Positions 11,189-64,000 of a DNA stretch of 64,000 nt are shown here, piece after piece; position 1 is the first letter of the stretch; each line of letters opens with the position of its first letter. The stretch comes from Acidobacteriota bacterium (GTDB lineage: Bacteria; Actinomycetota; Acidimicrobiia; Spongiisociales; UBA5794). The stretch spans positions 14,483 through 78,482 of the forward strand of contig JADFQA010000012.1 of the NCBI GenBank assembly GCA_022562055.1. Direction: 5' to 3'. Position numbers and translations under genes: made by a program. The notes below the pieces were generated by a model. That model saw nothing but the letters and a program-made list of their open reading frames with translations. It made no database searches and was not told the origin of the DNA.

Positions 11189-13012
11189 CTACTCGACGGT
11201 GACGCTCTTTGCGAGGTTGCGAGGCTGGTCTATGTCGTGACCACGCAGACGTGCCACATGGTACGCAAGAAGCTGCAGTGGTATCGCGGCAACGATCGGA
11301 CCGATCAGATCAGGCGCCGTGGGTATCCGCAGAACCAGGTCGGCCTCCCGCTCAATGTTGGTGTCGTCGTCGTATGCAACCGCGATGACGTGTGCGCCAC
11401 GAGCCTTTACCTCGGCAACAGCAGACATTGTCTTGTCGTACACGTCTCGCTGAGTCGCGACCGCAACGACAGGGACACCCGGGGTGATAAGAGCCAGTGT
11501 GCCGTGTTTCAGCTCGCCGGCGGGTAGTGCTTCGGAATGCAGGTATGAGACCTCCTTTAGCTTCAACGACGCCTCCATGGCGACCGCAAAATCGAGACCC
11601 CGCCCGATGAAGTAGCAGTCAGAGGCGTCAACGATCTGCTCGGCGGCGGCGATTGCAACATCTTCGCGTGCAAGGGCCTCTTCAATGTACGCGGGTAGAT
11701 GTTGGAGGCCGCGACCGATCTCGGCAGCTAAGGTTTGATCAACGTTGCCGCGAGCTTGACCAAGGTGCAGCGCCAGGAGATACTCGGCAACCAGCATCGC
11801 AACATATGCCTTGGTGGACGCGACTGAGATCTCTGGTCCGGCACGCGTGTACAGAATGTCGTCCGCACCGCGAGCCAGCGTCGACCCGACCACGTTGGTA
11901 AGCGCCAACATCCGGGATCCTTGACGCTGGGCGAGTCCCGCAGCGGCGAGGGTATCGGCGGTCTCGCCCGATTGCGACACTGCAACGGTTAGCGACTCAC
12001 TGCCGACGAGGGGGTCGCTGTAACGCATCTCGTGAGCGTATTCAACGTACGTTGGGATACGAAGCAGCTTGCGGAACAGCACCCCACCGACCAGTGCAGC
12101 GTGATACGCAGTGCCACATGCGGTGAACCAGACGGACTTGATCGACTGGGCGTAATCGGTGTCGAATGCAATATCCTCAAGCCATACGGAGCCGTCCTCA
12201 TCGAGGCGCCCGGCCAGAGTTTCCGATACCACGGTGGCCTGCTCGTGGATCTCCTTGAGCATGAAATGTTCGTAACCGCCCTTCTCCGCCATGCCCGCGT
12301 CCCAGTCGACGACAAACACTTCACGGTCTACCGGGTCGCCTGAGATCGTGGTTATGTGAGCACCGTCGTCGTCGACAACCACCATCTCACCGTCTTCGAT
12401 GATCAAGAACTTCCTCGTCCGATGCAGCACGGCTGGGATGTCGGACGCGATGAACGTCTCGCCGTCGCCGAGACCGATCACCATCGGCGACACCCTGCGC
12501 ACCGCGACGATCCTGCGCGGCTCGTACTCTGTCATCACGACCAGTGCGTACGCCCCCTCGGCCATGTCGACAACCGCTCGGACCGCGACAACAAGATCGC
12601 CGTCATACGCGTTCGCTACTAGGTGGGCGAGGATCTCGGTGTCGGTCTCTGAAGTGAACACATGACCTGTTTTGCGCAGCTCATCCCGCAGGGTCTGGTG
12701 ATTTTCAATGATGCCGTTGTGAACCACGACAAACTTGCCGCTCGCATCGGTGTGCGGGTGAGCGTTTGCGTCGCTCGGCACGCCATGGGTGGCCCAGCGC
12801 GTGTGGCCAATACCCACCGAACCAACCGGGTTGGCGTCGTCGATAACCGCCTGAAGCTTGTCGATCTTTCCCTGCGCCTTGAGCACCGATATCGACCCGT
12901 TAGTTACGGCGATCCCCGCCGAGTCATAACCCCGATACTCGAGCCGGCGCAGCCCGTCGAGAAGAATTTCTGCGGCCTCTTGAGGGCCGACATATCCCAT
13001 GATCCCGCACAT
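11189..13012 (-). CDS. glmS: Glutamine--fructose-6-phosphate aminotransferase
   Basis: MCGIMGY N-terminal nucleophile; two SIS domains; terminal VTVE. Confidence 0.96.
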   Translation of the reverse strand: MCGIMGYVGPQEAAEILLDGLRRLEYRGYDSAGIAVTNGSISVLKAQGKIDKLQAVIDDANPVGSVGIGHTRWATHGVPSDANAHPHTDASGKFVVVHNGIIENHQTLRDELRKTGHVFTSETDTEILAHLVANAYDGDLVVAVRAVVDMAEGAYALVVMTEYEPRRIVAVRRVSPMVIGLGDGETFIASDIPAVLHRTRKFLIIEDGEMVVVDDDGAHITTISGDPVDREVFVVDWDAGMAEKGGYEHFMLKEIHEQATVVSETLAGRLDEDGSVWLEDIAFDTDYAQSIKSVWFTACGTAYHAALVGGVLFRKLLRIPTYVEYAHEMRYSDPLVGSESLTVAVSQSGETADTLAAAGLAQRQGSRMLALTNVVGSTLARGADDILYTRAGPEISVASTKAYVAMLVAEYLLALHLGQARGNVDQTLAAEIGRGLQHLPAYIEEALAREDVAIAAAEQIVDASDCYFIGRGLDFAVAMEASLKLKEVSYLHSEALPAGELKHGTLALITPGVPVVAVATQRDVYDKTMSAVAEVKARGAHVIAVAYDDDTNIEREADLVLRIPTAPDLIGPIVAAIPLQLLAYHVARLRGHDIDQPRNLAKSVTVE

Positions 13013-13034
13013 TGCGCGACCTCCTGTGTTCCAG

Positions 13035-13210
13035 GACTGAGTCGCCGCGCAGGGTTCCCCTGCTTCACATCGTTGCGGTCTTTGTTCCCAAAATCACTTC
13101 CAGGATATTCACCGCACCGTTTCGACCGTGAAAAGCCGAGAGAGCATCCGCCGAATCGTTCGATAACTCTCTTCCTCGTCACCTCGCCTAGGCGAGGCCT
13201 GGCGCTTCGT
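13035..13210 (-). ncRNA. glmS ribozyme (GlcN6P-responsive self-cleaving riboswitch) in the glmM-glmS intergenic region
   Basis: The minus-strand transcript carries the core blocks AGCGCC...GUGACGAGGAAGAGAGUUAUCGAA...UUCGGCGGAUGC...CGGCU...GGGAACAAAG, in the same order as the B. subtilis glmS ribozyme. Confidence 0.75.
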
Positions 13211-13270
13211 TACAGCACCGACCAGTCGTTTGAATTGTCACAGCAGTATAGGACGGCAACCGATATGTGA

Positions 13271-14608
13271 CTACCCATGTTCGGCAGCCACGACGGCAGC
13301 TACCGTCTCCGCAATCTCGTTTGCCTTACCGATTTCACCAGCCTCAACCATCACTCGAATGAGCGGTTCAGTGCCAGAGGCGCGGACAAGGATCCGACCG
13401 TCCTGTCCGAGCGCAACCTCCGCCTCGGCTACTGCCTTCGTTATGGCGTCGTTGGTGTCCCAACCGGTCTTCGACGTTACGGTGACGTTGGTGAGCACCT
13501 GAGGGTAGGAACGCATCACCTTGCGCAACTCAGAGAGCCTCAGACCAGTCGCTGCAAGAACCTCTGCAAGTCGCAGCGCGGTGCGAAGGCCATCTCCCGT
13601 CGAGCGGTCCTCCAAAATGACGTGACCTGACTGCTCACCACCCAGGACAGCTCTCGACTTACGCATGGCGTCAAGCACCGCGCGATCCCCGACATCGGTC
13701 TCAATCACTTCGACCCCCAGACCGCCCATGGCGCGCTTAAACCCGAGGTTCGCCATGACAGTGGTCACGACGACGTTCCCCTTCAGCTTCCGCCTGTCGA
13801 TGGCGTGTTTCACCAGAATGGCGAGCACCACATCGCCGTCAACTACTTCGCCGTCCTCATCAACAGCGATCAACCGGTCAGCATCACCATCGAAGCAGAA
13901 CCCGACATGGCCGTTCGCCTGCTCAGCGAGCGCCTCCGGATACATGGCCCCGCAACCGTCGTTGATGTTCATCCCGGTTGGCTCGTCGTTAAATACCTCG
14001 ACGTGGGCGCCGAGGATCTCGAAAAGCATCGGGGCAGCTTGGAAGGCTGCCCCGTGAGCCGTATCCAACGCAAACTCAAGGCCCCGCAGCGAGTACGCGA
14101 CACCGTCCTTGATGTAGTCAACGTAACGTTGCACTGAATTGGCCATCGTTGTTTGGAACCCGACACCGGCACCGGCCACGGTCGCAACGGCAGCTCGGGA
14201 GTGGTAACGCCGCTCAATGGCGCGCTCCTCAGAGTCGCTGAGCTTGGCACCGTCGCGGCCAAAGAACTTGATGCCGTTGTCGGGCGCGGGGTTGTGCGAC
14301 GCGGAAACCATGACGCCGTATCTAGCACCGACGGAGCGGACCAACCGTGACACACCGCCGACGGGGATGATGCCGAGGTCAACCGTGTCAACACCGACGC
14401 TGTTGAACCCGGCATGCAGCGCGGCAGCGATCATCGTGCCCGATCGGCGGGTATCGCGACCGATCAGAACCGGTTCAGTGGCGGTCTTGTCGGTTGCCGC
14501 ACGGGCGAGCTGTATCGCAAGCTCCACGGTGATGTCGGTGTTTGCGCGACCGCGAACTCCATCAGTCCCGAACAACTTCTCGGAGCGATCACCCATGCGT
14601 GCGGGCAC
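13271..14608 (-). CDS. glmM: Phosphoglucosamine mutase
   Basis: LFGTDGVRG and SASHNPAPDNGIK active-site motifs. Confidence 0.95.
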   Translation of the reverse strand: MPARMGDRSEKLFGTDGVRGRANTDITVELAIQLARAATDKTATEPVLIGRDTRRSGTMIAAALHAGFNSVGVDTVDLGIIPVGGVSRLVRSVGARYGVMVSASHNPAPDNGIKFFGRDGAKLSDSEERAIERRYHSRAAVATVAGAGVGFQTTMANSVQRYVDYIKDGVAYSLRGLEFALDTAHGAAFQAAPMLFEILGAHVEVFNDEPTGMNINDGCGAMYPEALAEQANGHVGFCFDGDADRLIAVDEDGEVVDGDVVLAILVKHAIDRRKLKGNVVVTTVMANLGFKRAMGGLGVEVIETDVGDRAVLDAMRKSRAVLGGEQSGHVILEDRSTGDGLRTALRLAEVLAATGLRLSELRKVMRSYPQVLTNVTVTSKTGWDTNDAITKAVAEAEVALGQDGRILVRASGTEPLIRVMVEAGEIGKANEIAETVAAVVAAEHG

Positions 14609-22049: not shown

Positions 22050-22763
22050 CTACAAGATTACACGAGACTGTATCACGGGTCCAATTATCCACACCGCTGG
22101 CGACTCGACATACGCCTCCCCGCGAGCAACCTCTCCAAGCGTCGCGATGACCACTAACTCAGTGTCCTTTGTGGCGTTCTCAACAAATGCCACGGGTTCC
22201 GACTCGGACCGACCACGATTGATGAGTGAACGCGCGATTCTTCGTCGGTTGGCAACGCCCATCAAGACGACGAGCGTATCAGCCTGGGCGCAGCGATCCC
22301 AGGAGTCCTCGGCGTCGGTGATCGTGTGACCGGTGACCACCGTAAAAGACCGCGCAACACCGCGTAGGGTCAGTGGGATACCCGCAATCGGACCGGCGGC
22401 GAGCGCCGACGACACCCCGGGAACGGTGACAACATCGATCCCGGCGGCTACAAATGCCTGCCACTCCTCGATCCCCCTGCCGAACACAAACGGGTCTCCA
22501 CCCTTGAGTCGGACAACGTGGGATCCACGCTGCGCCCTGTCGATCGCGGTCGAAACGATGAGCGCTTGGATCTCATCTTCGTGACCGGGCCGCTTGCCGA
22601 CATCGATGATCTCAGCCGATGGCCGAGCCCAACCAAGCGCGCGTTTATCGACCAGACGGTCGTGCAGGATCACATCTGCGGTCTCGATCGCCCGTCTTCC
22701 TCTCACTGTGATGAGATCCGGGTCGCCGGGGCCAGCCCCGACGAGCGTCACGACACCGCTCAT
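22050..22763 (-). CDS. cobA: Uroporphyrinogen-III C-methyltransferase (SUMT)
   Basis: [13 protein letters not shown]...VVRLKGGDP motifs. Confidence 0.85.
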
Positions 22764-23443
22764 TCTGCAGTCACCCTAATGTGGAGGCCGCATTCGACCT
22801 TCCGACCGTTCCAGCGTCCGTCGCGGGAATCACCCGCTCCAAATGTCGGTACGGTGCATGGTGCACAGCCGACACTTGAGTACCCCTCCGCATAGAGAGG
22901 GTGCTCGGGGATGTCGTGCTCACGTGTGTAGGTCGCGATGTCGTCGAACGTCCACTCCACGAGAGGGTTTACCTTGTACAGCGTGTGGGTGTCGCTCTGC
23001 TCATACCGTTCTACCTTCGGCGTATCGTGCCGAGAGGCCGACTGACCGCGTCGCAGCGCTGTGAACCACACCGAGTAATCGGCGAGCGCCTCACGTAACA
23101 CCTCCACCTTGCGTTCGTTGCAGCAAGCATCAGGGTTTGTCTCATACACCATCCCGCGAACGGTCTCCAGCTCCTGGCGAGACACCCGCGGCCGTAAGGT
23201 GATGAGGTTGAGGCTCCACCTTGCCGCCAGCTCATCACGGAACTCAAGCGTCTCCTGGAAGTGGTACCCCGTGTCAAGGAATAACACCGCGATATCCACC
23301 TTGATCTGGAGGATCTGGTGGAGCAGAACGAGTCCACCCCGCTGGGTGGATATTGAAATGGCCAGCGTCCCTTCTCGGCCCAGACCCCACGAAATGACGT
23401 CCTCCGTCAACCACCGAGCGTCGTCTCTTACAAGCGTCGTCAT
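22760..23443 (-). CDS. cysH: Adenylylsulfate/phosphoadenylylsulfate reductase (thioredoxin-dependent, Fe-S type)
   Basis: CCNERKVE...SVGCAPCT cysteine motifs. Confidence 0.85.
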
Positions 23444-24117
23444 CCTGACACTCCCTCTGTCGTTACGAGCCCGATGGCGTGACTGATTGTTGTCGCCGCC
23501 CCGTCGTGGTCGCCCGCCTGAAACCTGGCGTGTGCTTCGGAGTCGACGATGCGGTACCAGGCATCTCGCCTTTCCTCGTACGTTCCGAAGGACGCCTTCA
23601 CCATTGGTCTGAATTGCCGCAAGAACGTCAACCAGGAACCCTGCCCGTGGCCGACCATGGCCGCGATCCGATCCCGCAGCCGTGTCGCCACGGCCGGAGC
23701 CGCGCCACCAGTTGAGATAGCGACCACAAGATCACCGTCTCGATGCACCGCAGGCAGCATGAAGGAACAGTGGGCGGGATCGTCGGCGCCGTTGGCAAGG
23801 ATGGAACGCTCGTTTGCCGCCTCCCATACGGCCCGGGCGACGTCGGGATCGTTCACAGCCGAGATCACCAGCACCGCACCGTCGAGGTCTTGCGGCTCGA
23901 AAGGTTTCTGCCGCCAGGACAAAACTCCCTCGCTGTCGAGAGCGCGTACAGCAGCGGTGGCCTCGGGAGAAACCACCTCGATAACAGCCCCGCCCGCCAC
24001 AAGAGCTCGAAGCTTCTGCGCGCCGACCGAGCCGCCGCCAACGACGACCACGCGGCGTTCAGTCAGGTCGATCAACACGGGATACAACTCGGGCGGTCCG
24101 GTGTGACCTACGCGCAT
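23440..24117 (-). CDS. Siroheme synthase N-terminal-type enzyme (precorrin-2 dehydrogenase / sirohydrochlorin ferrochelatase)
   Basis: Rossmann motif VVVVGGGSVGAQK; CysG-N/SirC-like. Confidence 0.7.
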   Translation of the reverse strand: MRVGHTGPPELYPVLIDLTERRVVVVGGGSVGAQKLRALVAGGAVIEVVSPEATAAVRALDSEGVLSWRQKPFEPQDLDGAVLVISAVNDPDVARAVWEAANERSILANGADDPAHCSFMLPAVHRDGDLVVAISTGGAAPAVATRLRDRIAAMVGHGQGSWLTFLRQFRPMVKASFGTYEERRDAWYRIVDSEAHARFQAGDHDGAATTISHAIGLVTTEGVSG

Positions 24118-25889
24118 TCTGACTCTCCCAACGTCACCGCAAAGGGAACGGACTCGTCGAAATCCGTGTAGAACTCCGGAGCCTCGGCTGGCGAGGCGAC
24201 CACCGTGAGATCCTCAACCGAGGCGCGCAGAACAGCGATACCACCGGCCCGGTCGATCCACGCCGCGAACGTCTCGCCTGCATCACGCGCGTTTGAAAAT
24301 GCCCCGACAAGGCGTACGACGACCGCCGGTACGTTCTTCGCCGGAAGCCGACAGACCCGCTGAGCAAACTCGATCCGCTCGTCGCCCACGTAGCCGCCGA
24401 CCAGCATCTGATACCCGGGCACGGACTCACCATGGCTGCGACGTTCAACACCGTGGAAGCCGATATCGGCGACGTGATGGTGACCGCACGAGTTCGTGCA
24501 CCCCGAGATGTTGATCCGGATGCCGCCAACCTCGGCCAGGGCCGCATCTTCAAGTGCGGCATCGATCGCCTTGGCAAGGCCACGCGACTGGGTGATAGCA
24601 AGGTTGCAGGTGTCGGCGCCAGGGCAGGCCACAACATCTCGTGCGAACTCTGCACCGGGGCTGGCCATGCCGATCTCGACGAGCGCGGCGTGCACTGAAC
24701 CCAGCCGGTCGGCATCGATGCCACGGAACACCACATTTTGGCGATTCGTGATCCGCACGTCGGCATCGACGGCGCGCTGGATCCCGGCAAGACCACGAAA
24801 TTGGTCGCCTGTGATGTCTCCGAGGAACGCATGGGCGTAGACGGATACCGTCGCGTCGCGAACACCACGGACAACGTTCGTCGACGACCAGCGGTCAAAC
24901 GGCGACACGCCCCTGATCTGCACAGGAGTACCCTGACCGAGCGTGGTGATCTCGCCGACCGCGATCCCGGCGGCAGGCTCGTCGCCGAACTCGTGGACCT
25001 GGTGCGGGATACCTCCCGGATACGATGACGACGCGGGAAGCAACCGACGGACCTCCATCACGCGGCGTTGCACCTCATCGAACCCGATAGTGTCGACGAG
25101 CCACTTCATCCGGGCACGAAGTTTGTTCTCCCGATTACCCGCCTGGTCGAACACACGCAGGATCGCCTCGAGTGTCGGCAGTAGATCCTCACGGGTCGTG
25201 AACGGCTCTAGGGCCAACGCGGGATGCGGGTTAGCGCCGAGACCCCCGGCGACGTATACCCGGAAACCAACCTGTGTGGCGCCTGACTCGTCTGTTGTGG
25301 CAACCGCGATAACGCCGATGTCGTTGAACATTGCCTGTCCGCAGTCGGTTGCACAACCCGAGAAGTTCACCTTGAACTTTCGCGGGAGCCGTTGAGCGAT
25401 CGGATTCCGCAGAAACAGCCGATACGCTGCCTCGGCCCACTGGGTGATGTCAAGTATCTCAACGGGGCACGCTCCAGCGAGGTGACAGCCCTGAACATTG
25501 CGTACGACATCGCCGCACGCCTCACGAGTCGTCAACCCAACAGATGCCAGGAGCCGGAGAACTTCCGGCACAGCGTCCAGGTGGACGAAGTGAAACTGGA
25601 TGTTCTGCCGGCTCGTGATGTGGCCGAAACCGCGAGAATGCGACTCGACGAGATCGCCGAGAAGGTCGAGCTGTTCCGGGGTCAACGAGCCGTAAGGCAC
25701 TTTGACCCGGATCATCTGGTTGTCATTCCCCTGCCGCTGACCGTAGACGCCGTTGGAGAGCCTGAACGAGCGGAAGACGTCCTCGTCTACGTCACCGGCC
25801 CGGTACCGGGCGAGCATGTCTTCAAATTTCGTTATGTCGGTTAGAAGGGCTCGGTCGAGGTCGTTGTCGGAAATGGCGCGTACGGTCAT
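24108..25889 (-). CDS. sir: Ferredoxin-dependent sulfite (or nitrite) reductase, siroheme-[4Fe-4S]
   Basis: CTNSCGHHH... siroheme/Fe-S cysteine cluster; NIR_SIR repeats. Confidence 0.85.
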   Translation of the reverse strand: MTVRAISDNDLDRALLTDITKFEDMLARYRAGDVDEDVFRSFRLSNGVYGQRQGNDNQMIRVKVPYGSLTPEQLDLLGDLVESHSRGFGHITSRQNIQFHFVHLDAVPEVLRLLASVGLTTREACGDVVRNVQGCHLAGACPVEILDITQWAEAAYRLFLRNPIAQRLPRKFKVNFSGCATDCGQAMFNDIGVIAVATTDESGATQVGFRVYVAGGLGANPHPALALEPFTTREDLLPTLEAILRVFDQAGNRENKLRARMKWLVDTIGFDEVQRRVMEVRRLLPASSSYPGGIPHQVHEFGDEPAAGIAVGEITTLGQGTPVQIRGVSPFDRWSSTNVVRGVRDATVSVYAHAFLGDITGDQFRGLAGIQRAVDADVRITNRQNVVFRGIDADRLGSVHAALVEIGMASPGAEFARDVVACPGADTCNLAITQSRGLAKAIDAALEDAALAEVGGIRINISGCTNSCGHHHVADIGFHGVERRSHGESVPGYQMLVGGYVGDERIEFAQRVCRLPAKNVPAVVVRLVGAFSNARDAGETFAAWIDRAGGIAVLRASVEDLTVVASPAEAPEFYTDFDESVPFAVTLGESECA

Positions 25890-26061
25890 GTGTTTGTCCT
25901 AAGAATATTGTGGGGACGGTCGAGAATGCAGTGGTTGGCGAGCTGTTTACAGCGTCTCGCCGACATCGCATTCGCATACACATGGTCGTCTTCACCTTCA
26001 TCGGGAGTCACCGCGCCCACCAAGGGCATGATCCAGGTCTTCGATCAAGTCAGCAACGTCC

Positions 26062-27219
26062 TCAAGACCGATCGACAGCCGAATGGTCCCCGTCATGCAG
26101 ACCGACATCTGAACGCTCCTCAGGGGTGAGCATGCGGTGCGTCGTCGTCCCTGGGTGCGTCACAAGGCTCTTGGTGTCGCCAAGGTTGTTCGAGATGTCG
26201 AACACTGTGAGAGGGTCGATAATTTCGAATGCGCGGGATGTCGATCCTTCCACAGTGAACGTCACAACGGTGCCACCCGTCGACATCTGCTCCTGCGCAA
26301 GCGAGCGCTGGGGATGCGAAGCGAGGAACGGGTAGAGAACCGTGGCGACCGCCGCGTGACCCTCAAGCCACTCCGCAACCGCTAACGCCGAAACTGACTG
26401 CGCACGGACACGAAGGTCAAGCGTTTCGAGACCCTTCAGAGCCACCCACGCGTTGAAAGGACTCATCGCTGGTCCAGTGTGCCGATAGAACAACTGGAGA
26501 TGCTCATCAATGAACTGTTCGGACGCCAGCACCGCTCCACCCAGTGTCCTGCCCTGGCCGTCAATGTGCTTAGTGGTCGAGTACACGACGACGTCGGCAC
26601 CGAAAGCGAGCGGACTCTGCACCACCGGCGACGCGAAGACGTTGTCCACAACAACCGTCGCACCACCGCAATGAGCGATCTTGCTGACCGCGGCGATATC
26701 GATGATCTCAAGTGTCGGGTTTGAGGGTGATTCGAAAAACACCGCGGTTGTTGGGACACTTAGCTCGCGCTCCCACGCGTCGAGTTCCGTCCCATCAATG
26801 AGCACCGTCTCGATGCTCCATCGAGGCAAGATCTGGGAGATTATCACTTTGCACGAACCAAAAAGTGCCCGCGACGCAGCGACTCGATCGCCAGCTTGAA
26901 GCTGCGACGCAAGCGCCGCGAATACTGCGGCCATGCCGGTCCCTGTGGCCTTGCAAACCTCTGCACCCTCAATGAGTCTCAGCCGCTCCTCGAAAACAGC
27001 AACAGTCGGGTTGCCGTAGCGAGAATAGATGTACCGGTCGATGTCGCCTTCGAAGGCGGCCTTTGTTTCGGCGGCCGACCCGTATACATATCCTGAGGTG
27101 AGGAACATACCCTCGGACGTTTCGCCGAACGGAGTGCGATTGAGGCCACCACGCACCTGCAACGTGGCAGGTCTCCAGGAGCGGTTATTTTGTGAAACGG
27201 CGGGCGAAGATGAGGACAT
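26062..27219 (-). CDS. metY: O-acetyl/O-succinyl-homoserine sulfhydrylase (MetY/MetZ, PLP). A +1 frameshift in a G4 run near 26087-26090 moves the conserved C-terminus (...TIRLSIGLEDVADLIEDLDHAL) into another frame. Start at MSSSS, which has a GGAG RBS.
   Basis: YSTTKHIDGQG PLP-Lys motif; the canonical C-terminus is read only after shifting frame at catgacGGGGacc. Confidence 0.8.
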   Translation of the reverse strand: MSSSSPAVSQNNRSWRPATLQVRGGLNRTPFGETSEGMFLTSGYVYGSAAETKAAFEGDIDRYIYSRYGNPTVAVFEERLRLIEGAEVCKATGTGMAAVFAALASQLQAGDRVAASRALFGSCKVIISQILPRWSIETVLIDGTELDAWERELSVPTTAVFFESPSNPTLEIIDIAAVSKIAHCGGATVVVDNVFASPVVQSPLAFGADVVVYSTTKHIDGQGRTLGGAVLASEQFIDEHLQLFYRHTGPAMSPFNAWVALKGLETLDLRVRAQSVSALAVAEWLEGHAAVATVLYPFLASHPQRSLAQEQMSTGGTVVTFTVEGSTSRAFEIIDPLTVFDISNNLGDTKSLVTHPGTTTHRMLTPEERSDVGLHDGDHSAVDRS

Positions 27220-27588
27220 GGGGAAAACTCCGGGGACAGGTGTGCTCAGTGAACAGATTGTCAGGACAACCGCCGTCAAGCGAAATTACCCTCGGGTGGC
27301 GGTGACGGCGTTAGGAGTACGACCTGCATGCGCATGCCGCACTCGGGTTAACCACCCGAGAGCTACACATCAAGCACATACACATCAGCGTCTTCATACC
27401 CGAGAAGGTAGCGCACCGGACGCCGACGTCAAACTCGCGATCGAGTCGCACCCGGGTCCACAGACGAGCAGCATCAGCCTCGGATTATTCACCCACGCCG
27501 GCTCGTGCACTTCCGCACCAGGCCAGTCAGGGCGTAAGAGGTAAACCTGTCATCGCGGAGACCCCGACAACGTCCCCGGTTGTCACAA
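27220..27588 (-). promoter_or_regulatory. Long (about 370 nt) structured 5' leader of metY; candidate cis-regulatory RNA, class not identified
   Basis: Multiple nested inverted repeats (CUCGGGUGG/CCACCCGAG, GCCGUCA/UGACGGCG, GCAUGCGCAUGC); SAM-I and SAM-IV cores not matched. Confidence 0.3.
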
Positions 27589-35242: not shown

Positions 35243-36448
35243 CTAGGCACCCTTGCCGTCAGAGTCAGGGGCCCCGCTAGCGTCAGCAGCCTCGTCAGCG
35301 TCAGCGGCCCCGTCGGCAGCGGCATCCTCAGACGTGTCGCCTTCGGCAACTGCCTCTGGAGTAGCGCCGTCGTCGGATGAGGTGTCACTGTCAGACGCGT
35401 CATCGACGTCTACGGCCTCGGTCGTCGAACTCTCTGAAGAGTCTTGGGTGACGTCAATGGCATCTGTCTGAGACTCGGTCTTTGTCTCCACGTCGCTCGT
35501 GGACGTTTGCTCGCTCGAGACATCCGCGGCCACGTCGGTGGCCGTGGTGCCGTCGACAGCGCCGCGTGCATCGTCAAGCTCTTCCTTAACATCGGCGGCC
35601 GACACTGTGGGTGTGTCTTCGTGCTTTGGACGACGTTTACCGCCGCCGGCCTCAACAAGACGTTTGCCGCCGCCGGCCTCGATGATCTTGCGTGGGCCGG
35701 TAGGACCACCGCCTTTTGCGGCTGCCTCGGCACGAGACTTCGCCGGGCGACGGCGATTCGACGGACCACCTGCAGCGAGCCGAGCCTCGGCCGCAATCTT
35801 GTCTGCGCGCCCGAGCAGTGATGGTGAAACATCACCCTTGTACACCCACACCTTGATGCCGATCGTTCCGACGGTGGTGTGCGCGGTGGCGACGCCGTAG
35901 TCAATGTCGGCGCGCAGGGTGTGCAATGGCACACGACCTTCGAGGTACCACTCTCGACGACCCATGTCAGCGCCGCCGAGACGACCAGACGCCTGCACAC
36001 GGACACCCTCAGCACCTGCCTTGAGCGCGGTTGCGACAGTGCGCTTCATAGCTCGCCGGAAAGACACCCGACCCTCAAGCTGGTCAGCGACCGAACGGGC
36101 GAGCAGCGTCGCATCGAGCTCGGCGTTCTGGACCTCTATGACGTTGAACTTCACAATGAGACCGGTGAGTTTCTCAAGCCCGCGGCGCATCCGCTCGGCC
36201 TCAGAACCTGCGCGACCAATCACAACACCAGGTCGCCCCGTGTGGATATCGATCTGGACCTTCTTGTCACCGATTCGTTCGATGTCTATCCGCGAGATTG
36301 CACCGCGCGATAGTTCAGTCGTGAGATACGTGCGGATATCGGCGTCTTGGTTGACCTGGAACGCGTAGTCCTTTTCGGAGTACCAGCGTGACTTCCAGTC
36401 CGTGACGATGCCCAGACGGAGTCCGTACGGATGTATTTTCTGTCCCAC
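35243..36448 (-). CDS. rpsC: 30S ribosomal protein S3 with a roughly 150-170 aa acidic, S/T/A/D/E-rich C-terminal extension (GTG start overlapping the rplV stop)
   Basis: N-terminal [12 protein letters not shown]; KH and S3-C domains, then a low-complexity tail ...[25 protein letters not shown]...[19 protein letters not shown]. Confidence 0.9.
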
Positions 36449-36789
36449 TACGCCTCCTCTCTTTCGGATACAACGATGGTGATGTGACAGGTGCGCTTGC
36501 GAATCTTGGTTGCGCGGCCACGAGCACGTGGGCGCCAACGTTTCAGCGTCGGACCTTCGTCGGCGTATGCCTCAGAAATGAACAACTCATCTGCGTCGAG
36601 AGCATGGTTGTGCTCAGCGTTTGCGACGGCGGAATCGAGGACCTTCAGGATGGTGTCAGCCGCTCTGCGATTGGTAAACCTCAACACATCGCTGGCTTCG
36701 TCGACCGGAAGTTCGCGAACCAAATCGAGAACTCGACGGACCTTATACGGTGACTGACGGATGTACTTCGCCTGCGCTTTGACGTTCAT
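36448..36789 (-). CDS. rplV: 50S ribosomal protein L22
   Basis: Homology. Confidence 0.95.
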
Positions 36790-39869: not shown

Positions 39870-41060
39870 CTACTTGATGATTTTGGTGACTCGGCCGGCA
39901 CCAACAGTCCGCCCACCCTCACGAATAGCGAACCGCAACCCCTCATCCATAGCAATCGGATTAATCAACTCAACCGTCATCTCAGTGTTATCACCAGGCA
40001 TCACCATCTCCGTACCCTCAGGCAACGACACCGAACCAGTCACATCCGTCGTCCGAAAATAAAACTGCGGACGATACCCATCAAAAAACGGGTTCTGACG
40101 CCCACCCTCATTACGCGTCAACACATACACCTGAGCCTCAAACAACGTATGAGGAGTAATCGAACCCGGCGCCGCAATCACCTGACCACGCTCCACATCC
40201 TCCTTACCCGTCCCCCGCAACAACAACCCAACATTGTCACCAGCATGAGCCTCATCCAACAACTTACGAAACATCTCCACCCCAGTAACCGTCGTCTTCT
40301 GCAACGCCCGAATACCAACAATGTCAACCTCAGACGCAATCTTCAACCATCACTGCTCAACCCGCCCAGTCACCACAGTCCCCCGCCCAGTAATCGAAAA
40401 CACATCCTCAATCGGCATCAAAAACGGCTTATCCATATCCCGCTCAGGCAACAAAATGTACTCATCAACAGCCGCCATCAACTCCAAAACCTGAGCCGAA
40501 GCACCCTCATCACCCTCCAACGCCAACAACGCCGAACCACGAATCACCGGAACCTCATCACCCGGGAACTCATACTCCGACAACAACTCCCGAACCTCCA
40601 ACTCAACAAGATCCAACAACTCCTCATCATCCACCATGTCAACCTTATTCAAAAAGACAACAATCCGAGGAACCCCAACCTGCAACGCCAACAACACATG
40701 CTCACGCGTCTGCGGCATCGGACCATCAGCAGCCGACACCACCAAAATCGCACCATCAATCTGCGCAGCACCCGTAATCATATTCTTCACATAATCAGCA
40801 TGACCCGGCATATCAACATGCGCATAATGACGATTCACCGTCTCATACTCCACATGAGAAATCGCAATCGTAATACCACGCTCACGCTCCTCAGGAGCAT
40901 TATCAATCTCATCAAAAGCAGTGAACTGCGTCACCCCACCAACAGTCTCAGCCAACACCCGCGTAATCGCAGCAGTCAACGTCGTCTTCCCATGATCAAT
41001 ATGACCCATCGTCCCAACATTCACATGCGGCTTCACCCGCTCAAACTTCTCCTTAGCCAT
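39870..41060 (-). pseudogene. tuf: Elongation factor Tu, copy 1 (str operon position), interrupted by an in-frame TGA at 40350-40352; highly atypical codon usage
   Basis: The ORF track splits EF-Tu into 40350..41060 and 39870..40346. Copy 2 reads ...[15 protein letters not shown] where copy 1 reads ...[14 protein letters not shown]. Third codon positions are almost exclusively G or T. Confidence 0.85.
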
Positions 41061-41074
41061 AACGGCGACTCCTT

Positions 41075-43177
41075 CTATTCGCCACGAACCTTGGCAACAA
41101 TTTCTTGCGCCACGGTGCTCGGGACTTCTTGGTACGAATGAAACTGCATGCTGTAGCTGGCGCGACCTTTGGTTCGAGAACGAAGATCGCTCACGTAGCC
41201 AAACATCTCTGCCAGCGGCGTCAATGCATTGATGATTTTGATGGGTCCACGGGAATCCATGGACTCAACCTTTCCACGACGAGCGGAGATATCACCGATG
41301 ACATCTCCCAAGTGCTCTTCTGGTGTGACTACCTCGACCTCCATTATGGGTTCGAGAAGTTTTATGCCCGCCCGCTCGGCAGCCGCTTTGAGGGCCATTG
41401 AACCGGCGATTCGGAACGCCATCTCGTTCGAGTCCACGTTATGGCTCGAGCCGTCGATCAGCGTTGCCTTTAGGTCGACAAGCGGGAATCCCGCGAGAAC
41501 ACCGGCTTCGAGAACGTCGCGCATTCCTTTTTCTGCAGCGGGGATAAACTCGCGTGGAACGGACCCACCCTTGATTTTGTCGATGAATTCGAATCCTGAC
41601 CCCGGCGCACCTGGTTCAAGGTTGATAACGACGTGGCCGTACATACCGGAGCCACCGGTCTGCTTCTTCAGCTTGCCGTCAATCTTGGTAACTGCCCTTT
41701 TGATCGTCTCGCGATACGCGACCTGAGGCCGACCGACATCAGCCTCGACCTTGAACTCGCGTCGCAAACGGTCGACAAGGATATCGAGGTGCAGTTCGCC
41801 CATGCCTGCAATGATCGTCTGACCTGTCTCCTCGTCGGTGTGGACCACAAACGTCGGGTCTTCTTCGGCAAGACGCATGAGGCCTTCGCCGAGTTTGTCC
41901 TGAGCGGCCTTGTTCTTCGGCTCAATCGCCACCGAAATCACAGGATCGGGGAAGGTCATCGACTCGAGTTGGATCGGTGCGTCCTGAGCGGACAGGGTGT
42001 GCCCGGTCTTCGTTGCTTTCAACCCAACCGCCGCCACAATGTCACCGGTGCGAACCTCGTCAATATCCTCTTGCGTGTTTGCATGCATGCGCAGCAAACG
42101 TCCGAACCGCTCGCGCTTTCCGGTGGTCGCGTTCACGACGGTGTCGCCCCTCTTGGCCCACCCCGAGTACACGCGGAAGTAGGTGAGTTTCCCAACATAG
42201 GGATCGGACATGATCTTGAATGCCAACGCCGAGAATGGCTCGTCATCGCTCGGCTTGCGCTCGAGTATCTCGTCCTCTTTTCCTGGTCTGAAACCGGTCA
42301 TCGGGGGAACATCGAGCGGGCTTGGAAGATACATCACCACGCCGTCGAGGAGACCCTGGACGCCCTTGTTTTTGAGGGCAGATCCGAGAAGTACCGGTAC
42401 GAAATCGTGGTTGATGGTGCCTTTACGAATGGCCGCACGCAGCTCATCGGGGGTGATTTCCTCGTCAGAGAGATATTTCTCAAGGAGGTCGGCGTCCTCT
42501 GCCGCAACAATGTCGAGCAGCTTTGCGCGATACTCATCGGCCTGCTCCTGGAGCTCGGCCGGGATGTCTACAACGTCCCACTCTTTGCCGTCGTCGGTTT
42601 TGCCGTCGTCGGTGTCCCGATACACGATTGCTTTCATATCGACGAGGTCGATGGCGCCGGAAAAGTCACCCTCAACTCCCACCGGAATCTGAACGGCGAC
42701 TGGGTTACCACCGAGGCGATCGACAATCGAATCGATAGCGGCAAAGTAGTCTGCGCCGATCCGATCCATCTTGTTGATGAAGCAGATGCGGGGGACCCCG
42801 TACTTGTCGGCTTGACGCCATACAGTCTCTGACTGCGGCTCAACACCTGAGACCGCATCGAAAACCGCAACCGCGCCATCGAGAACACGAAGCGACCGCT
42901 CGACCTCGACCGTGAAATCGACGTGCCCAGGCGTATCAATAATGTTGATGGTGTGATCATCCCAAAGGCACGTGGTGGCGGCAGACGTAATAGTGATGCC
43001 GCGTTCCTGCTCCTGCTCCATCCAGTCCATGACAGCAGACCCCTCGTGGACCTCACCGATCTTGTACGTGCGACCGGTGTAGTAGAGGATCCGCTCTGTC
43101 ACTGTCGTCTTACCGGCATCGATGTGAGCCATGATGCCGATATTGCGAACCGTTTCGAGTTTCATACTGCGTGCCAT
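41075..43177 (-). CDS. fusA: Elongation factor G
   Basis: [10 protein letters not shown]-domain; 700 aa. Confidence 0.97.
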
Positions 43178-58135: not shown

Positions 58136-58167
58136 CTCTCGATTCACATGCAATCCTTCCTCGATGG

Positions 58168-58241
58168 GCAGGGGCGGTGGGATTCGAACCCACAACCTCT
58201 GGTTTTGGAGACCAGCGCTCTAGCCGTTAGAGCTACACCCC
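58168..58241 (-). tRNA. trnW: tRNA-Trp (anticodon CCA); 3' CCA not encoded
   Basis: AGGGGUGUAGCUCUAACGGCUAGAGCGCUGGUCUCCAAAACCAGAGGUUGUGGGUUCGAAUCCCACCGCCCCUG; cloverleaf with anticodon loop CUCCAAA. Confidence 0.9.
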
Positions 58242-58324
58242 TCTACGACTCGGAGCCGACGGGAGAGTATATGTTGCTTTGCCCGAAAGTGTAAAACCCT
58301 GGTTTGGCGTGCGGGAAACCTCTG

Positions 58325-61487: not shown

Positions 61488-62750
61488 CGTTCTTGCGTCC
61501 AATAGTGCAGGATCCTGCGGTGGTCTCAAGTGGTGTGCGCGACGGGGTGACCTTTTTGAGGTGATTTTATGTCTCGTCCAAAGACCCCTTGGCGGGTAGC
61601 GCGGGTAGCGCTGTTTGAGTTGGCGAGGGGGGCGTCCATTGATGATGCTGCAACGGTGGCGGGGGTGTCTGCGCGTATGGTTGACCGGTTTGTCAACGAG
61701 TATGGGCGGATGACTATACGTGAAACAAAACCACGAGCTAACGCACTCACTTTCGGGGAACGCGAAGAGATATGGATGGGTATCCAACGTGGGGAGTCAA
61801 ACACTGTGCTGGCGCAACGGTTGGGAAGGTCCCGTTCAACAATCTGGCGGGAGATCACTAACAATGGTGGCCGTGAAGGCTATCGCATGTCCCGCGCCCA
61901 GGATCGTGCCCATCGACAGGGACGGCGCCAGCGTCCAACGTGGGTTGAGACTAGGCCGTGGCTGTGGGATGTCGTGGTTGGGTTGTTGCTTTACGAGAAG
62001 TGGTCACCCGAGCAGATCGCTCACCGGCTTCGCATAGAGCACCCCAATGATTCATCATGGTGGGTGTCACACGAAACGATTTATCAAGCTATCTACGTCC
62101 AAGCCAGAGGCGGGTTACGTGAAGAACTCATGGCCTGTCTGCGTAGCGGGCGCACGGCACGTAAACCGCAGCGTCGTGGAGTGACCACTGGGGGCAGGAT
62201 TACTTCAAAGGTGATGATCTCTCAACGACCTAGCGAGGTTGCTGATCGGGCTGTGCCCGGGCACTGGGAAGGAGACCTCATAGTTGGCAAAGGAAACAAA
62301 AGTTACGTTGCGACACTGGTGGAACGCACCACCCGGTTAGGGATACTCATCAAAATTGACTCCAAGGACGCCGGGCATGTTGCTCAACGCCTGAGTGAAC
62401 ATGTTCAGACACTCCCTACCCAGCTCTTCAAGACCCTCACCTGGGACCAGGGAACCGAACTTGCTGACCATGCCGTGTTCACTATCCGGACCGGGGTCCC
62501 TGTGTTCTTTTGTGACCCTCGTTCGCCGTGGCAACGCGGCTCTAACGAGAATTTCAACGGCCTCGTGAGGCAATTCCTCCCCAAAGGAACCGACCTCTCC
62601 CAACACTCCCAAGCCGACCTTGATGAATACGCCCGACTACTCAACAACCGACCACGTAAAACGCTTAACTGGGACAAACCAGCAGAGCAATACAACCAAC
62701 TCGTCGCGGCCACAGCTTGAAACCACCTGCACTATTGGACGCAAGAACGG
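61488..62750 (+). mobile_element. IS30-family insertion sequence with perfect 25-bp terminal inverted repeats
   Basis: IRL ccgttcttgcgtccaatagtgcagg (61488-61512) = revcomp of IRR (62726-62750); single transposase ORF inside. Confidence 0.9.
61569..62720 (+). CDS. IS30-family transposase (DDE)
   Basis: HTH N-terminus; HWEGD...integrase core; typical IS30 length (383 aa). Confidence 0.9.
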   Translation: MSRPKTPWRVARVALFELARGASIDDAATVAGVSARMVDRFVNEYGRMTIRETKPRANALTFGEREEIWMGIQRGESNTVLAQRLGRSRSTIWREITNNGGREGYRMSRAQDRAHRQGRRQRPTWVETRPWLWDVVVGLLLYEKWSPEQIAHRLRIEHPNDSSWWVSHETIYQAIYVQARGGLREELMACLRSGRTARKPQRRGVTTGGRITSKVMISQRPSEVADRAVPGHWEGDLIVGKGNKSYVATLVERTTRLGILIKIDSKDAGHVAQRLSEHVQTLPTQLFKTLTWDQGTELADHAVFTIRTGVPVFFCDPRSPWQRGSNENFNGLVRQFLPKGTDLSQHSQADLDEYARLLNNRPRKTLNWDKPAEQYNQLVAATA

Positions 62751-62758
62751 GGGCTTTG

Positions 62759-62920
62759 CTAGCGGGTCTCCTTGTGCATCACATGTTCGCGACACCACTT
62801 GCAGAACTTCTTGAGCTCAATACGCTCACGCGTGTTGGTCTTGTTCTTCGTTGTCACGTAGTTACGACGCTTGCATTTCTCGCAAGCCAAAGTAATCGGC
62901 GGTCTCTTGGCGGAGGCCAT
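62759..62920 (-). CDS. rpmG: 50S ribosomal protein L33 (53 aa; absent from the ORF track because under 60 aa)
   Basis: Manual translation: [53 protein letters not shown]; GAGAGGAA RBS. Confidence 0.85.
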
Positions 62921-63013
62921 TGTCATTTCCTCTCAGTGGTAGCGCGAGCCCGGAGATTCCGGGACAGCGTCACCCTCAGTCTTCTTCCAGAACGTGTCTG
63001 AAGGTTGTCGTCC

Positions 63014-64000
63014 CTACTTGATGATTTTGGTGACTCGGCCGGCACCAACAGTCCGCCCACCCTCACGAATAGCGAACCGCAACCCCTCATCCATAGCAAT
63101 CGGATTAATCAACTCAACCGTCATCTCAGTGTTATCACCAGGCATCACCATCTCCGTACCCTCAGGCAACGACACCGAACCAGTCACATCCGTCGTCCGA
63201 AAATAAAACTGCGGACGATACCCATCAAAAAACGGGTTCTGACGCCCACCCTCATTACGCGTCAACACATACACCTGAGCCTCAAACAACGTATGAGGAG
63301 TAATCGAACCCGGCGCCGCAATCACCTGACCACGCTCCACATCCTCCTTACCCGTCCCCCGCAACAACAACCCAACATTGTCACCAGCATGAGCCTCATC
63401 CAACAACTTACGAAACATCTCCACCCCAGTAACCGTCGTCTTCTGCAACGCCCGAATACCAACAATGTCAACCTCAGACCCAATCTTCAACAACCCCTGC
63501 TCAACCCGCCCAGTCACCACAGTCCCCCGCCCAGTAATCGAAAACACATCCTCAATCGGCATCAAAAACGGCTTATCCATATCCCGCTCAGGCAACAAAA
63601 TATATTCATCAACAGCCGCCATCAACTCCAAAACCTGAGCCGAAGCACCCTCATCACCCTCCAACGCCAACAACGCCGAACCACGAATCACCGGAACCTC
63701 ATCACCCGGGAACTCATACTCCGACAACAACTCCCGAACCTCCAACTCAACAAGATCCAACAACTCCTCATCATCCACCATGTCAACCTTATTCAAAAAG
63801 ACAACAATCCGAGGAACCCCAACCTGCAACGCCAACAACACATGCTCACGCGTCTGCGGCATCGGACCATCAGCAGCCGACACCACCAAAATCGCACCAT
63901 CAATCTGCGCAGCACCCGTAATCATATTCTTCACATAATCAGCATGACCCGGCATATCAACATGCGCATAATGACGATTCACCGTCTCATACTCCACATG
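63014..64000 (-). CDS. tuf: Elongation factor Tu, copy 2 (intact over the visible part; 5' end beyond the window); nearly identical at DNA level to copy 1 and with the same atypical codon usage
   Basis: 63014..63997 ORF; DNA identical to 39870..40333 and onward apart from the 4-nt cluster and 2 synonymous sites. Confidence 0.9.

Follow-up and report, generated by a model that had tools for sequence, protein, structure and literature searches.

The 258-nt spacer between glmM and glmS (13270-13013, minus strand) in a 64,000-nt stretch of Acidimicrobiia DNA, referred to below as the window, contains what is almost certainly a glmS ribozyme. It is flanked by two further RNA structures, very likely real and conserved: a hairpin (H2) that masks the glmS Shine-Dalgarno (SD) sequence, and a helix (P0) that spans the cleavage site and engages the anti-SD arm of the same hairpin. 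Modelling suggests that the ribozyme sits inside a three-strand, cleavage-gated translational switch, in which self-cleavage would detach an anti-sequestor and thereby shut off translation. We put the chances of this full statement at about even.

The ribozyme itself had been called in a first-pass annotation from conserved blocks, AAGCGCCAGG, GUGACGAGGAAGAGAGUUAUCGAACGAUUCGGCGGAUGCUCUCUCGGCU and UUUUGGGAACAAAGACCGCAAC, all of which the minus strand of the spacer holds. When the whole window was scanned with Rfam cmscan, RF00234 was matched at 13062-13217 on the minus strand with 96.8 bits, far above the gathering score of 37 (E = 2.5e-21), over model positions 1-167 of 167 and untruncated. 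Two matches in total exceeded the gathering score. The functional body from G1 to P3.1 is 13205-13064, and the 3′ end of the ribozyme lies 50 nt before the glmS ATG on the coding strand. With GlmM and GlmS encoded on its two sides, the proposed location in the glmM-glmS spacer is borne out. The predicted self-cleavage site in AAGCGCC separates A(-1), position 13206, from G(+1), position 13205, according to both the RF00234 consensus and the structure alignment curated in 2007. The cleavage-site motif A/GCGCC, followed by P1, reads AAGCGCCAG at 13207-13199. Cleavage presumably depends on glucosamine-6-phosphate (GlcN6P).

The ribozyme is the rule in this Acidimicrobiia clade. RF00234 was found in the same place in five of five full-length Acidimicrobiia loci (L001-L005), with 83-95 bits, and a clade-specific core pattern retrieved 41 more metagenome contigs, 39 of which have a glmS start (xTG-TGY-GG) 116-166 nt downstream of the core. 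Our literature search found no mention of a glmS ribozyme in Acidimicrobiia. The 2007 GlcN6P alignment, however, includes Rubrobacter xylanophilus besides Chloroflexus, two Deinococcus, Fusobacterium and many Firmicutes (PMC2258182 supplement). Because Rubrobacter was already in that alignment, a glmS ribozyme in a deep-branching actinobacterium is not new, and the ribozyme alone is an ordinary family member. The first-pass description of the element as sporadic in Actinobacteria is thus fair, but the rarity that it implied is overstated, given the 2007 listing of Rubrobacter and the five of five Acidimicrobiia loci.

The secondary structure, including pseudoknots, is the curated one in the Barrick & Breaker 2007 Stockholm file (PMC2258182 supplement) and was mapped onto 43 distinct aligned leaders. 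P1, P2 and P2.1 can all form in the window, as can P2.2, P3, P3.1, P4 and P4a. On the minus strand, P1 pairs 13198-13192 with 13187-13181, P2 pairs 13172-13167 with 13144-13139, P3 pairs 13138-13134 with 13127-13123, P4 pairs 13119-13112 with 13078-13071, and P4a, capped by the GNRA-type loop GUGA, pairs 13104-13098 with 13093-13087. The pseudoknots are P2.1 (13204-13199 with 13153-13149, CGCC.G:CGGCG), P2.2 (13178-13176 with 13163-13161, CGA:UCG) and P3.1, in which the P3 loop pairs with the 3′ tail (13132-13128 with 13068-13064, UUCAC:GUGAA).

Across the 43 leaders, 95.3% of 1,952 cells are standard-paired, compared with 34-46% when partners are slid by 1-3 columns, and both sides are changed at 23 of 46 pairs (pseudoknots included). 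None of 500 shuffles reached the observed pairing values. Covarying pairs number four in P1, seven in P4, seven in P4a and one in P3. P3.1 cannot be represented in the Rfam model; it is paired at 97.7%, and three of its five pairs are changed on both sides (UUCAC:GUGAA in the window, CUCAC:GUGAG and CCCAC:GUGGG elsewhere). P2 is 100% paired, being fixed by the search pattern. Complementarity is 100% in P2.1 and 98.4% in P2.2, where positions are invariant and hence show no covariation. AGCGCC is invariant in 43 of 43 leaders, partly by construction, as leaders were retained only with AGCGCC within 60 nt upstream of the core. The idea that the ribozyme is now functionless, a relic in decay, has next to no probability. 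It is effectively refuted by covariation, with compensatory changes in P1, P3, P3.1, P4 and P4a, and the match to the full model at such a score, the invariant core and the conserved position and synteny also speak against it.

Downstream of the ribozyme, two hairpins occupy the remaining spacer in the minimum free energy (MFE) folds. H1 (13049-13063, minus strand, GCAGGG-GAA-CCCUGC) is directly 3′ of the ribozyme, adjoining the 3′ strand of P3.1. Nearly all clade leaders have a hairpin at this position, with differing sequences (mostly UGGGG-AAA-CCCA), and it might insulate P3.1 from the platform. H2 (13014-13048) is the SD-sequestering hairpin. Its 5′ (anti-SD) arm is 13048-13032 (GCG.CGACU...UCCUG), its loop 13031-13027, and its 3′ arm 13026-13014 (CAGGA-GGUCG-CGC). 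The 3′ arm contains the Shine-Dalgarno AGGAGG (13020-13025), as read from the sequence, 7 nt upstream of the glmS ATG at 13012-13010. In the predicted fold, UCCUG and CGACU pair with CAGGA-GGUCG, burying the SD. H2 alone has -18.7 kcal/mol (z = -4.16) in the window, and H1 and H2 together have -29.0 kcal/mol (z = -4.81).

The SD core is paired in the MFE structure of 39 of 41 clade leaders. The two-hairpin layout is kept while the arms change, as in UCCUG:CAGGA, UCUCC:GGAGA, CCUCC:GGAGG and UCUCCCU:AGGGAGA. In the modelled 3′ cleavage product, the probability that the 4-nt SD core is unpaired has a clade median of 0.002 (0.01 in the window) and is below 0.02 in 71% of leaders. As a background, 59 other genes with a GGAG SD from the same genomes have a median of 0.28, and 17% of them fall below 0.02 (Mann-Whitney U test, p = 7e-6 versus the clade leaders).

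The leader upstream of the cleavage site is conserved in the clade. In the window it would be the 5′ cleavage fragment of ~33 nt (13206-13238, minus strand, ACAAUUCAAACGACUGGUCGGUGCUGUAACGAA), and when folded alone it is unstructured, with an MFE of -1.0 kcal/mol (z = +1.8). Around -24 to -10, the clade leaders have complementarity to the 5′ (anti-SD) arm of H2, and the resulting helix is P0. Its 5′ strand in the window, the proposed anti-sequestor, is 13215-13234 (minus strand, UUCA..GACUG-GUCG.UGC, including GACUGGUCG) and pairs with the 3′ strand at 13048-13030, which consists of the same nucleotides as the anti-SD arm of H2. The duplex has -20.8 to -21.0 kcal/mol by RNAduplex, with z = -2.5 to -2.9 against dinucleotide shuffles, and the constrained ensemble of the window has an expected ~11.2 leader:arm base pairs. 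RNAduplex on long segments had given noisy extensions into promoter DNA, and segments were then restricted.

P0 is specific to the cognate partner. Mean duplex energies of leader and arm are -21.0 kcal/mol for cognate pairs versus -15.4 for non-cognate pairs. A permutation test used a single representative per leader cluster (26 clusters): the observed mean of -20.8 compares with -16.3 ± 0.7 and was reached by none of 20,000 permutations. Compensatory examples are GACCGGAG:CUCCGGUC versus GACCGGGGAA:UUCCCCGGUC, CAGCAC:GUGCUG, and GAGAUCGGCAC:GUGCCGGUCUC. The leader is also selective among possible targets. Its median z against dinucleotide shuffles is -3.4 with the arm, while it is +0.08 with the ribozyme body, -0.6 with the SD arm, +0.12 with the coding sequence and 0.0 with upstream DNA. 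In an outgroup of 16 RF00234 leaders, mostly from Bacillota, the P0 median z is +0.38, and P0 is significant in one of the 16 (Mann-Whitney U test, p = 4.5e-5).

One might suppose that the complementarity to the anti-SD arm is trivial, because the leader carries an SD-like 5′ sequence that acts as a STAB-SD-type stabiliser, holding 30S and blocking RNase J until cleavage removes it. Many Bacillota glmS leaders do carry AGAAAGGAG 25-45 nt upstream of the cleavage site, and GGAGAU is found in the leader of part of the clade. The window leader ACAAUUCAAACGACUGGUCGGUGCUGUAACGAA, however, has no SD-like motif, specifically no STAB-SD-type GGAGG/AAGGAG element, and many clade P0 strands are not SD-like either (GAGACGCGUGAUGCG, CCGACCGGGU, GAGAUCGGCAC). 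Moreover, the complementarity co-varies and runs 8-14 bp past any SD core. This explanation is very improbable.

Because the 3′ strand of P0 is made of the anti-SD arm nucleotides of H2, the two helices are mutually exclusive. P0 shares 11 of the 13 nucleotides of the H2 5′ arm in the window (clade median 8 of 12), and at least three of the four SD-core partners are inside the P0 footprint in 34 of 41 leaders. P0 is somewhat more stable than H2, with medians of -21.2 versus -16.3 kcal/mol, as expected for a default-ON state. To model the competition, we imposed the nested helices of the ribozyme and barred the pseudoknot bases from pairing. The median probability that the SD core is unpaired is 0.34 in the full-length RNA versus 0.002 in the 3′ product, and in the window 0.31 versus 0.01. 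Compared with the cleaved RNA, it is higher in the full-length RNA by more than 0.2 in 20 of 42 leaders and lower in two (Wilcoxon p = 8e-8, or 7.5e-6 with one leader per cluster).

The first-pass annotation placed glmS under metabolite-dependent mRNA self-cleavage. The ribozyme indeed lies upstream of glmS, but the rest of the spacer had been treated as inert, whereas the flanks hold H2 and P0. The conserved SD-sequestering hairpin and the co-varying cleavage-spanning helix suggest that more is at work than mRNA self-cleavage.

We propose the following course. A dedicated promoter just past glmM would drive transcription of the glmS 5′ untranslated region (UTR), perhaps supplemented by transcripts that read through from glmM. 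In the intact RNA, the P0 5′ strand (13234-13215) would pair across the whole ribozyme with the anti-SD arm (13048-13030), and with P0 formed, the SD would be accessible and glmS translated. When GlcN6P is abundant, the ribozyme would cut between A13206 and G13205, which would put the P0 5′ strand on a separate fragment of ~33 nt. Once this fragment is displaced or degraded, the anti-SD arm would fold onto the SD to form H2, and translation initiation would stop. An RNase J-type enzyme may also degrade the 5′-OH product. The folding model points to a functional link between cleavage and SD sequestration, and the logic that high GlcN6P turns expression off agrees with known biology.

Several points weigh against this proposal. 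The evidence for P0 and H2 is all computational, and the transcription start is a predicted one. The SD is only partly open in the modelled full-length RNA (0.3-0.6). A first thermodynamic test, with a -36 start, a 6-nt SD window and pseudoknot bases free to mispair, was weak (p = 0.017) and was replaced by the stricter set-up described above. With two crude SD-accessibility metrics the clade could not be told apart from outgroup or background, because the unpaired AA preceding GGAG entered the count; the 4-nt core metric took their place. The P0 duplex of about -21 kcal/mol would not dissociate spontaneously after cleavage, and release of the 5′ fragment would require a nuclease, a helicase or displacement of the strand by the SD arm. 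RNAalifold does not return P0: on an alignment with the ribozyme excised it finds only H1 and an artefactual GCGC:GCGC helix, and on 11 full-length leaders it picks H2 and pairs leader GAUGC with GUAUC of the ribozyme core. Column-wise covariation of P0 is modest in the best-aligned subgroup, with one clear covarying pair, two registers and 78% of cells paired. About six of the 26 leader clusters have no convincing P0 (L004, L005, L086, L094, L104 and L106). As for the ribozyme fold, P2, P2.2 and the P2.1 3′ strand were part of the clade search pattern and are invariant by construction, and the AGCGCC filter fixed most of the 5′ strand of P2.1. Fully independent evidence for the fold is thus confined to P1, P3, P3.1, P4 and P4a.

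Some of these points would be expected if only the canonical ribozyme operates here, that is, if GlcN6P-induced cleavage leaves a 5′-OH end that directs RNase J-type 5′-3′ decay as in Bacillus subtilis, and H2 and P0 are uncoupled from cleavage. H2 would then be a constitutive translation damper, and P0 a long-range clamp that aids folding or stops the GC-rich flanks from mispairing with the core. This is the sole mechanism described for the family (PMC3997798; PMC10810187; PMC10907184), and Actinobacteria generally have RNase J (PMC3997798, where mycobacterial RNase J is cited; PMC12096830; PMC6582357). The preference of RNAalifold for H2 over P0 and the excessive stability of P0 for spontaneous dissociation also fit. 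What it leaves unexplained is why the anti-SD arm is the specific, co-varying partner of the leader, why P0 and H2 compete for the same nucleotides in so many leaders (34 of 41, see above), and why the partner strand belongs to the part that cleavage cuts off. Besides, a constitutive sequestor together with a constitutive anti-sequestor would be redundant. We regard this explanation as possible but rather unlikely.

A further possibility, and an improbable one, is that P0 is a stability element: pairing of the leader would shield the uncleaved mRNA against nucleases at its 5′ end, and cleavage would matter only by lifting this protection, so that control is exerted via decay and not via ribosome access. 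P0 does enclose the ribozyme and involve the 5′-proximal 20-30 nt, and a 5′/3′-UTR interaction in B. subtilis hbs is known to control RNase action (PMC10810187, its reference 24). A protective clamp, though, would not need its partner to be specifically the anti-SD arm, with the SD nearly fully buried in the absence of the leader, and the predicted 5′-terminal 5-10 nt are outside P0. P0 in competition with H2 suggests a simple mechanism that is independent of RNase J.

The glmS family has been described as lacking an expression platform and acting through mRNA decay only (PMC12667848; PMC10810187; PMC10907184; PMC11477304), by cleavage followed by RNase J1 decay (PMC3997798; PMC10810187; PMC11477304). 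A preprint of 2025 looked into whether a terminator-type platform follows the aptamer and saw no covarying overlap; the sequence upstream of the cleavage site was not considered (PMC12667848). No glmS expression platform is described in the literature that we searched, whose coverage was partial, and an earlier description may exist. This may be the first natural self-cleaving ribozyme that directly controls translation initiation, independently of RNase J, with a three-part logic that seemingly recurs in some Clostridia; we hold this claim tentatively, at slightly less than even.

Cleavage-driven repression of glmS has hardly been examined outside the Bacillus paradigm. The ribozyme alone is routine, as any Rfam-based annotation finds it, and it adds Acidimicrobiia to the host range. 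If the switch is confirmed, the glmS family would gain a true expression platform, and the engineered hammerhead and twister SD switches a natural counterpart. It would also bear on drug design that assumes ribozyme activation to act through mRNA decay only. If recurrence in Clostridia is true, a family reviewed as lacking expression platforms may have a widespread one that has gone unnoticed.

Similar sequences were glimpsed outside the clade. The SD-like AGAAAGGAG of Bacillota glmS leaders was also seen in L032, L030, L024, L029 (Veillonella), L037 and L014. Three Clostridia (Oscillospiraceae) loci, L036, L042 and L047, have an anti-SD sequence after the ribozyme (UUCCUUUUUU or GGUCCUUU) that pairs with the true SD and also complements the SD-like element upstream. 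They present an AT-rich version of the three strands: ahead of the cleavage site an SD mimic, 3′ of the ribozyme an anti-SD, and finally the true SD. The duplex between upstream element and anti-SD has z = -4.2 in L036. These loci could follow the same cleavage-gated logic, or could carry a STAB-SD-type stabiliser that is removed by cleavage. Separately, a group II intron fragment (RF02001, cut by the locus end) is located just downstream of glmS in a Paenibacillaceae metagenome-assembled genome (MAG; L019:5064-5114), and a 6S RNA gene is near glmS in a Eubacterium MAG (L060:6279-6457).

The transcription start relevant to P0 was placed from promoter-like sequences. By consensus scan, TAGTCA-17-TATACT was found on the minus strand, consisting of a -35-like TAGTCA (13273-13268) that overlaps the glmM stop codon and a -10-like TATACT (13245-13250). 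The start is accordingly predicted at ~13239-13237 in the window and, counted from the cleavage site, at about -35 to -29 in the clade, upstream of P0. A TAnnnT box at -45 to -36 is present in 30 of 41 leaders, and its position is specific in that 29 of 47 TAnnnT occurrences within -90 to -1 end at -45 to -36 of the cleavage site. Most clade leaders (L001-L003, L082-L121) also have a motif ACAAC(U/A)GAAC at the predicted start, 6-8 nt after the TAnnnT box and outside the P0 core; in the window it is ACAAUUCAAA at 13238-13229. The motif may belong to the initial transcribed sequence or be an RNA element.

Other candidate elements were rejected. A terminator-type platform was dismissed, as the spacer has no terminator-like site. 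An upstream open reading frame (ORF) starting from leader GGAGAUG was discarded on account of its spacing of 0-1 nt and the absence of the motif from the window. A 4-bp helix between leader and start codon was also rejected, its apparent covariation stemming from alignment columns. Likewise, the GAUGC:GUAUC pairing of leader and ribozyme core was not retained, since the leader has no general complementarity to the ribozyme body (median z given above).

The gene taken as regulated, glmS, occupies 11189-13012 on the minus strand and encodes 607 aa (TIGR01135, 767.3 bits versus a cutoff of 418). Its upstream neighbour on the same strand, glmM, occupies 13271-14608 and encodes 445 aa (TIGR01455, 486.8 bits). 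Both ORFs exceed equivalog cut-offs. In Bacillus, too, glmM is the upstream neighbour. Of ~34 related loci with enough upstream sequence, 33 have glmM upstream in the same orientation. The gap between glmM and the ribozyme is ~0.9-1.1 kb in L001, L004, L097, L111 and L120, where an extra gene is seemingly inserted, versus the usual 0.1-0.25 kb, and glmM is not within 2-3.7 kb upstream in L003, L091 and L112. Those members with altered spacing or without glmM whose leaders were aligned (L091 was not) still keep the promoter-like box, the leader and the ribozyme.

The window is rich in core housekeeping genes on the minus strand: rpoB, rpoC, fusA, rpsC, secY, truA, rplM, rpsI, glmM, glmS, alr, tsaD and groEL, together with a tRNA-Trp (CCA) at 58167-58242 (Rfam, 67.4 bits), the sole RNA family match in the window besides RF00234. 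The genes rplM and rpsI precede glmM-glmS. This native rplM-rpsI-glmM-glmS synteny, in a core region of ribosomal and RNA polymerase (RNAP) genes, argues against recent horizontal transfer of glmS with its ribozyme. The best GlmS matches, counting one genome per species, are from Acidimicrobiia/Actinomycetota MAGs with 64-83% identity, and the next tier, from Armatimonadota and Bacillota, has at most 57%; the list of relatives is biased by the peptide patterns used for collecting candidates. Acidimicrobiia being a deep-branching class of Actinomycetota, the host assignment of the first-pass annotation to a deep-branching actinobacterial lineage proved right. Its description of the genome as high-GC holds in part, as the GC content of ~59% is moderate but not very high. 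No RNase J gene was identified among the 18 annotated ORFs of the window, to which the scan was limited.

Other features of the window were noted in passing. The ORF with ribosomal protein S3 (35243-36538, minus strand) has 431 aa, whereas the S3 model matches residues 32-238 only; it may have a C-terminal extension of ~190 aa, or the ORF call may overshoot the true gene boundaries. Inside the otherwise ribosomal/RNAP gene region lies a sulfur/nitrogen assimilation block (22050-27279, minus strand), with a sulfite/nitrite-reductase-like hemoprotein (24108-25889) and an O-succinylhomoserine sulfhydrylase (26062-27279). Two 2-kb stretches, 40001-42000 and 62001-64000, have a lower GC content of 0.54, a GC skew of -0.26 and a positive AT skew. 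The former takes in the end of fusA (EF-G) and sequence downstream of it. This composition may reflect codon bias in minus-strand genes with high expression.

Compared with known RF00234 ribozymes, such as those of Bacillus subtilis, B. anthracis and Thermoanaerobacter tengcongensis, the window ribozyme has the same core (A/GCGCC, GACGAGGA, UAUCGA, UCGGCGGAUG, the GNRA-capped P4a and ACAAAG), the same nested helices and three pseudoknots, and the same position in the glmS 5′ UTR. Unlike the typical member, its helices are GC-rich and its P1 is short with a 4-nt loop, and it is flanked by the co-varying, cleavage-spanning P0 and the SD-sequestering H2. The ribozyme of Rubrobacter xylanophilus (PMC2258182) is likewise a glmS ribozyme from a deep-branching, high-GC actinobacterial lineage. 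That organism belongs to the class Rubrobacteria rather than Acidimicrobiia, and it was compared without flanks, which the 2007 alignment omits.

As a switch, the proposed system resembles the platforms of translational riboswitches, the prevalent mode of riboswitch control in Actinobacteria (PMC2258182; PMC12667848). Both have three strands, which are SD, anti-SD and a competitor of the anti-SD, and both would let mutually exclusive helices decide ribosome access. In translational riboswitches the choice is made by ligand-induced folding of the aptamer, whereas the choice proposed here would be irreversible, with self-cleavage covalently removing the competitor strand, and there is no overlap between the platform and the aptamer/ribozyme fold itself. 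The closest counterparts are synthetic hammerhead and twister switches in E. coli (PMC5052635), in which self-cleavage alters SD accessibility rather than the mRNA level. They are engineered, however, with SD and anti-SD in a ribozyme stem, and cleavage frees the SD to turn expression ON. The proposed system is natural, has its SD hairpin outside the ribozyme, and would be turned OFF as cleavage removes the anti-sequestor. Finally, in the natural ligand-controlled splicing ribozyme, the product likewise differs from the precursor in the context of the ribosome-binding site, but that RNA is of an unrelated family and, by splicing rather than simple cleavage, creates a ribosome-binding site to turn expression ON.

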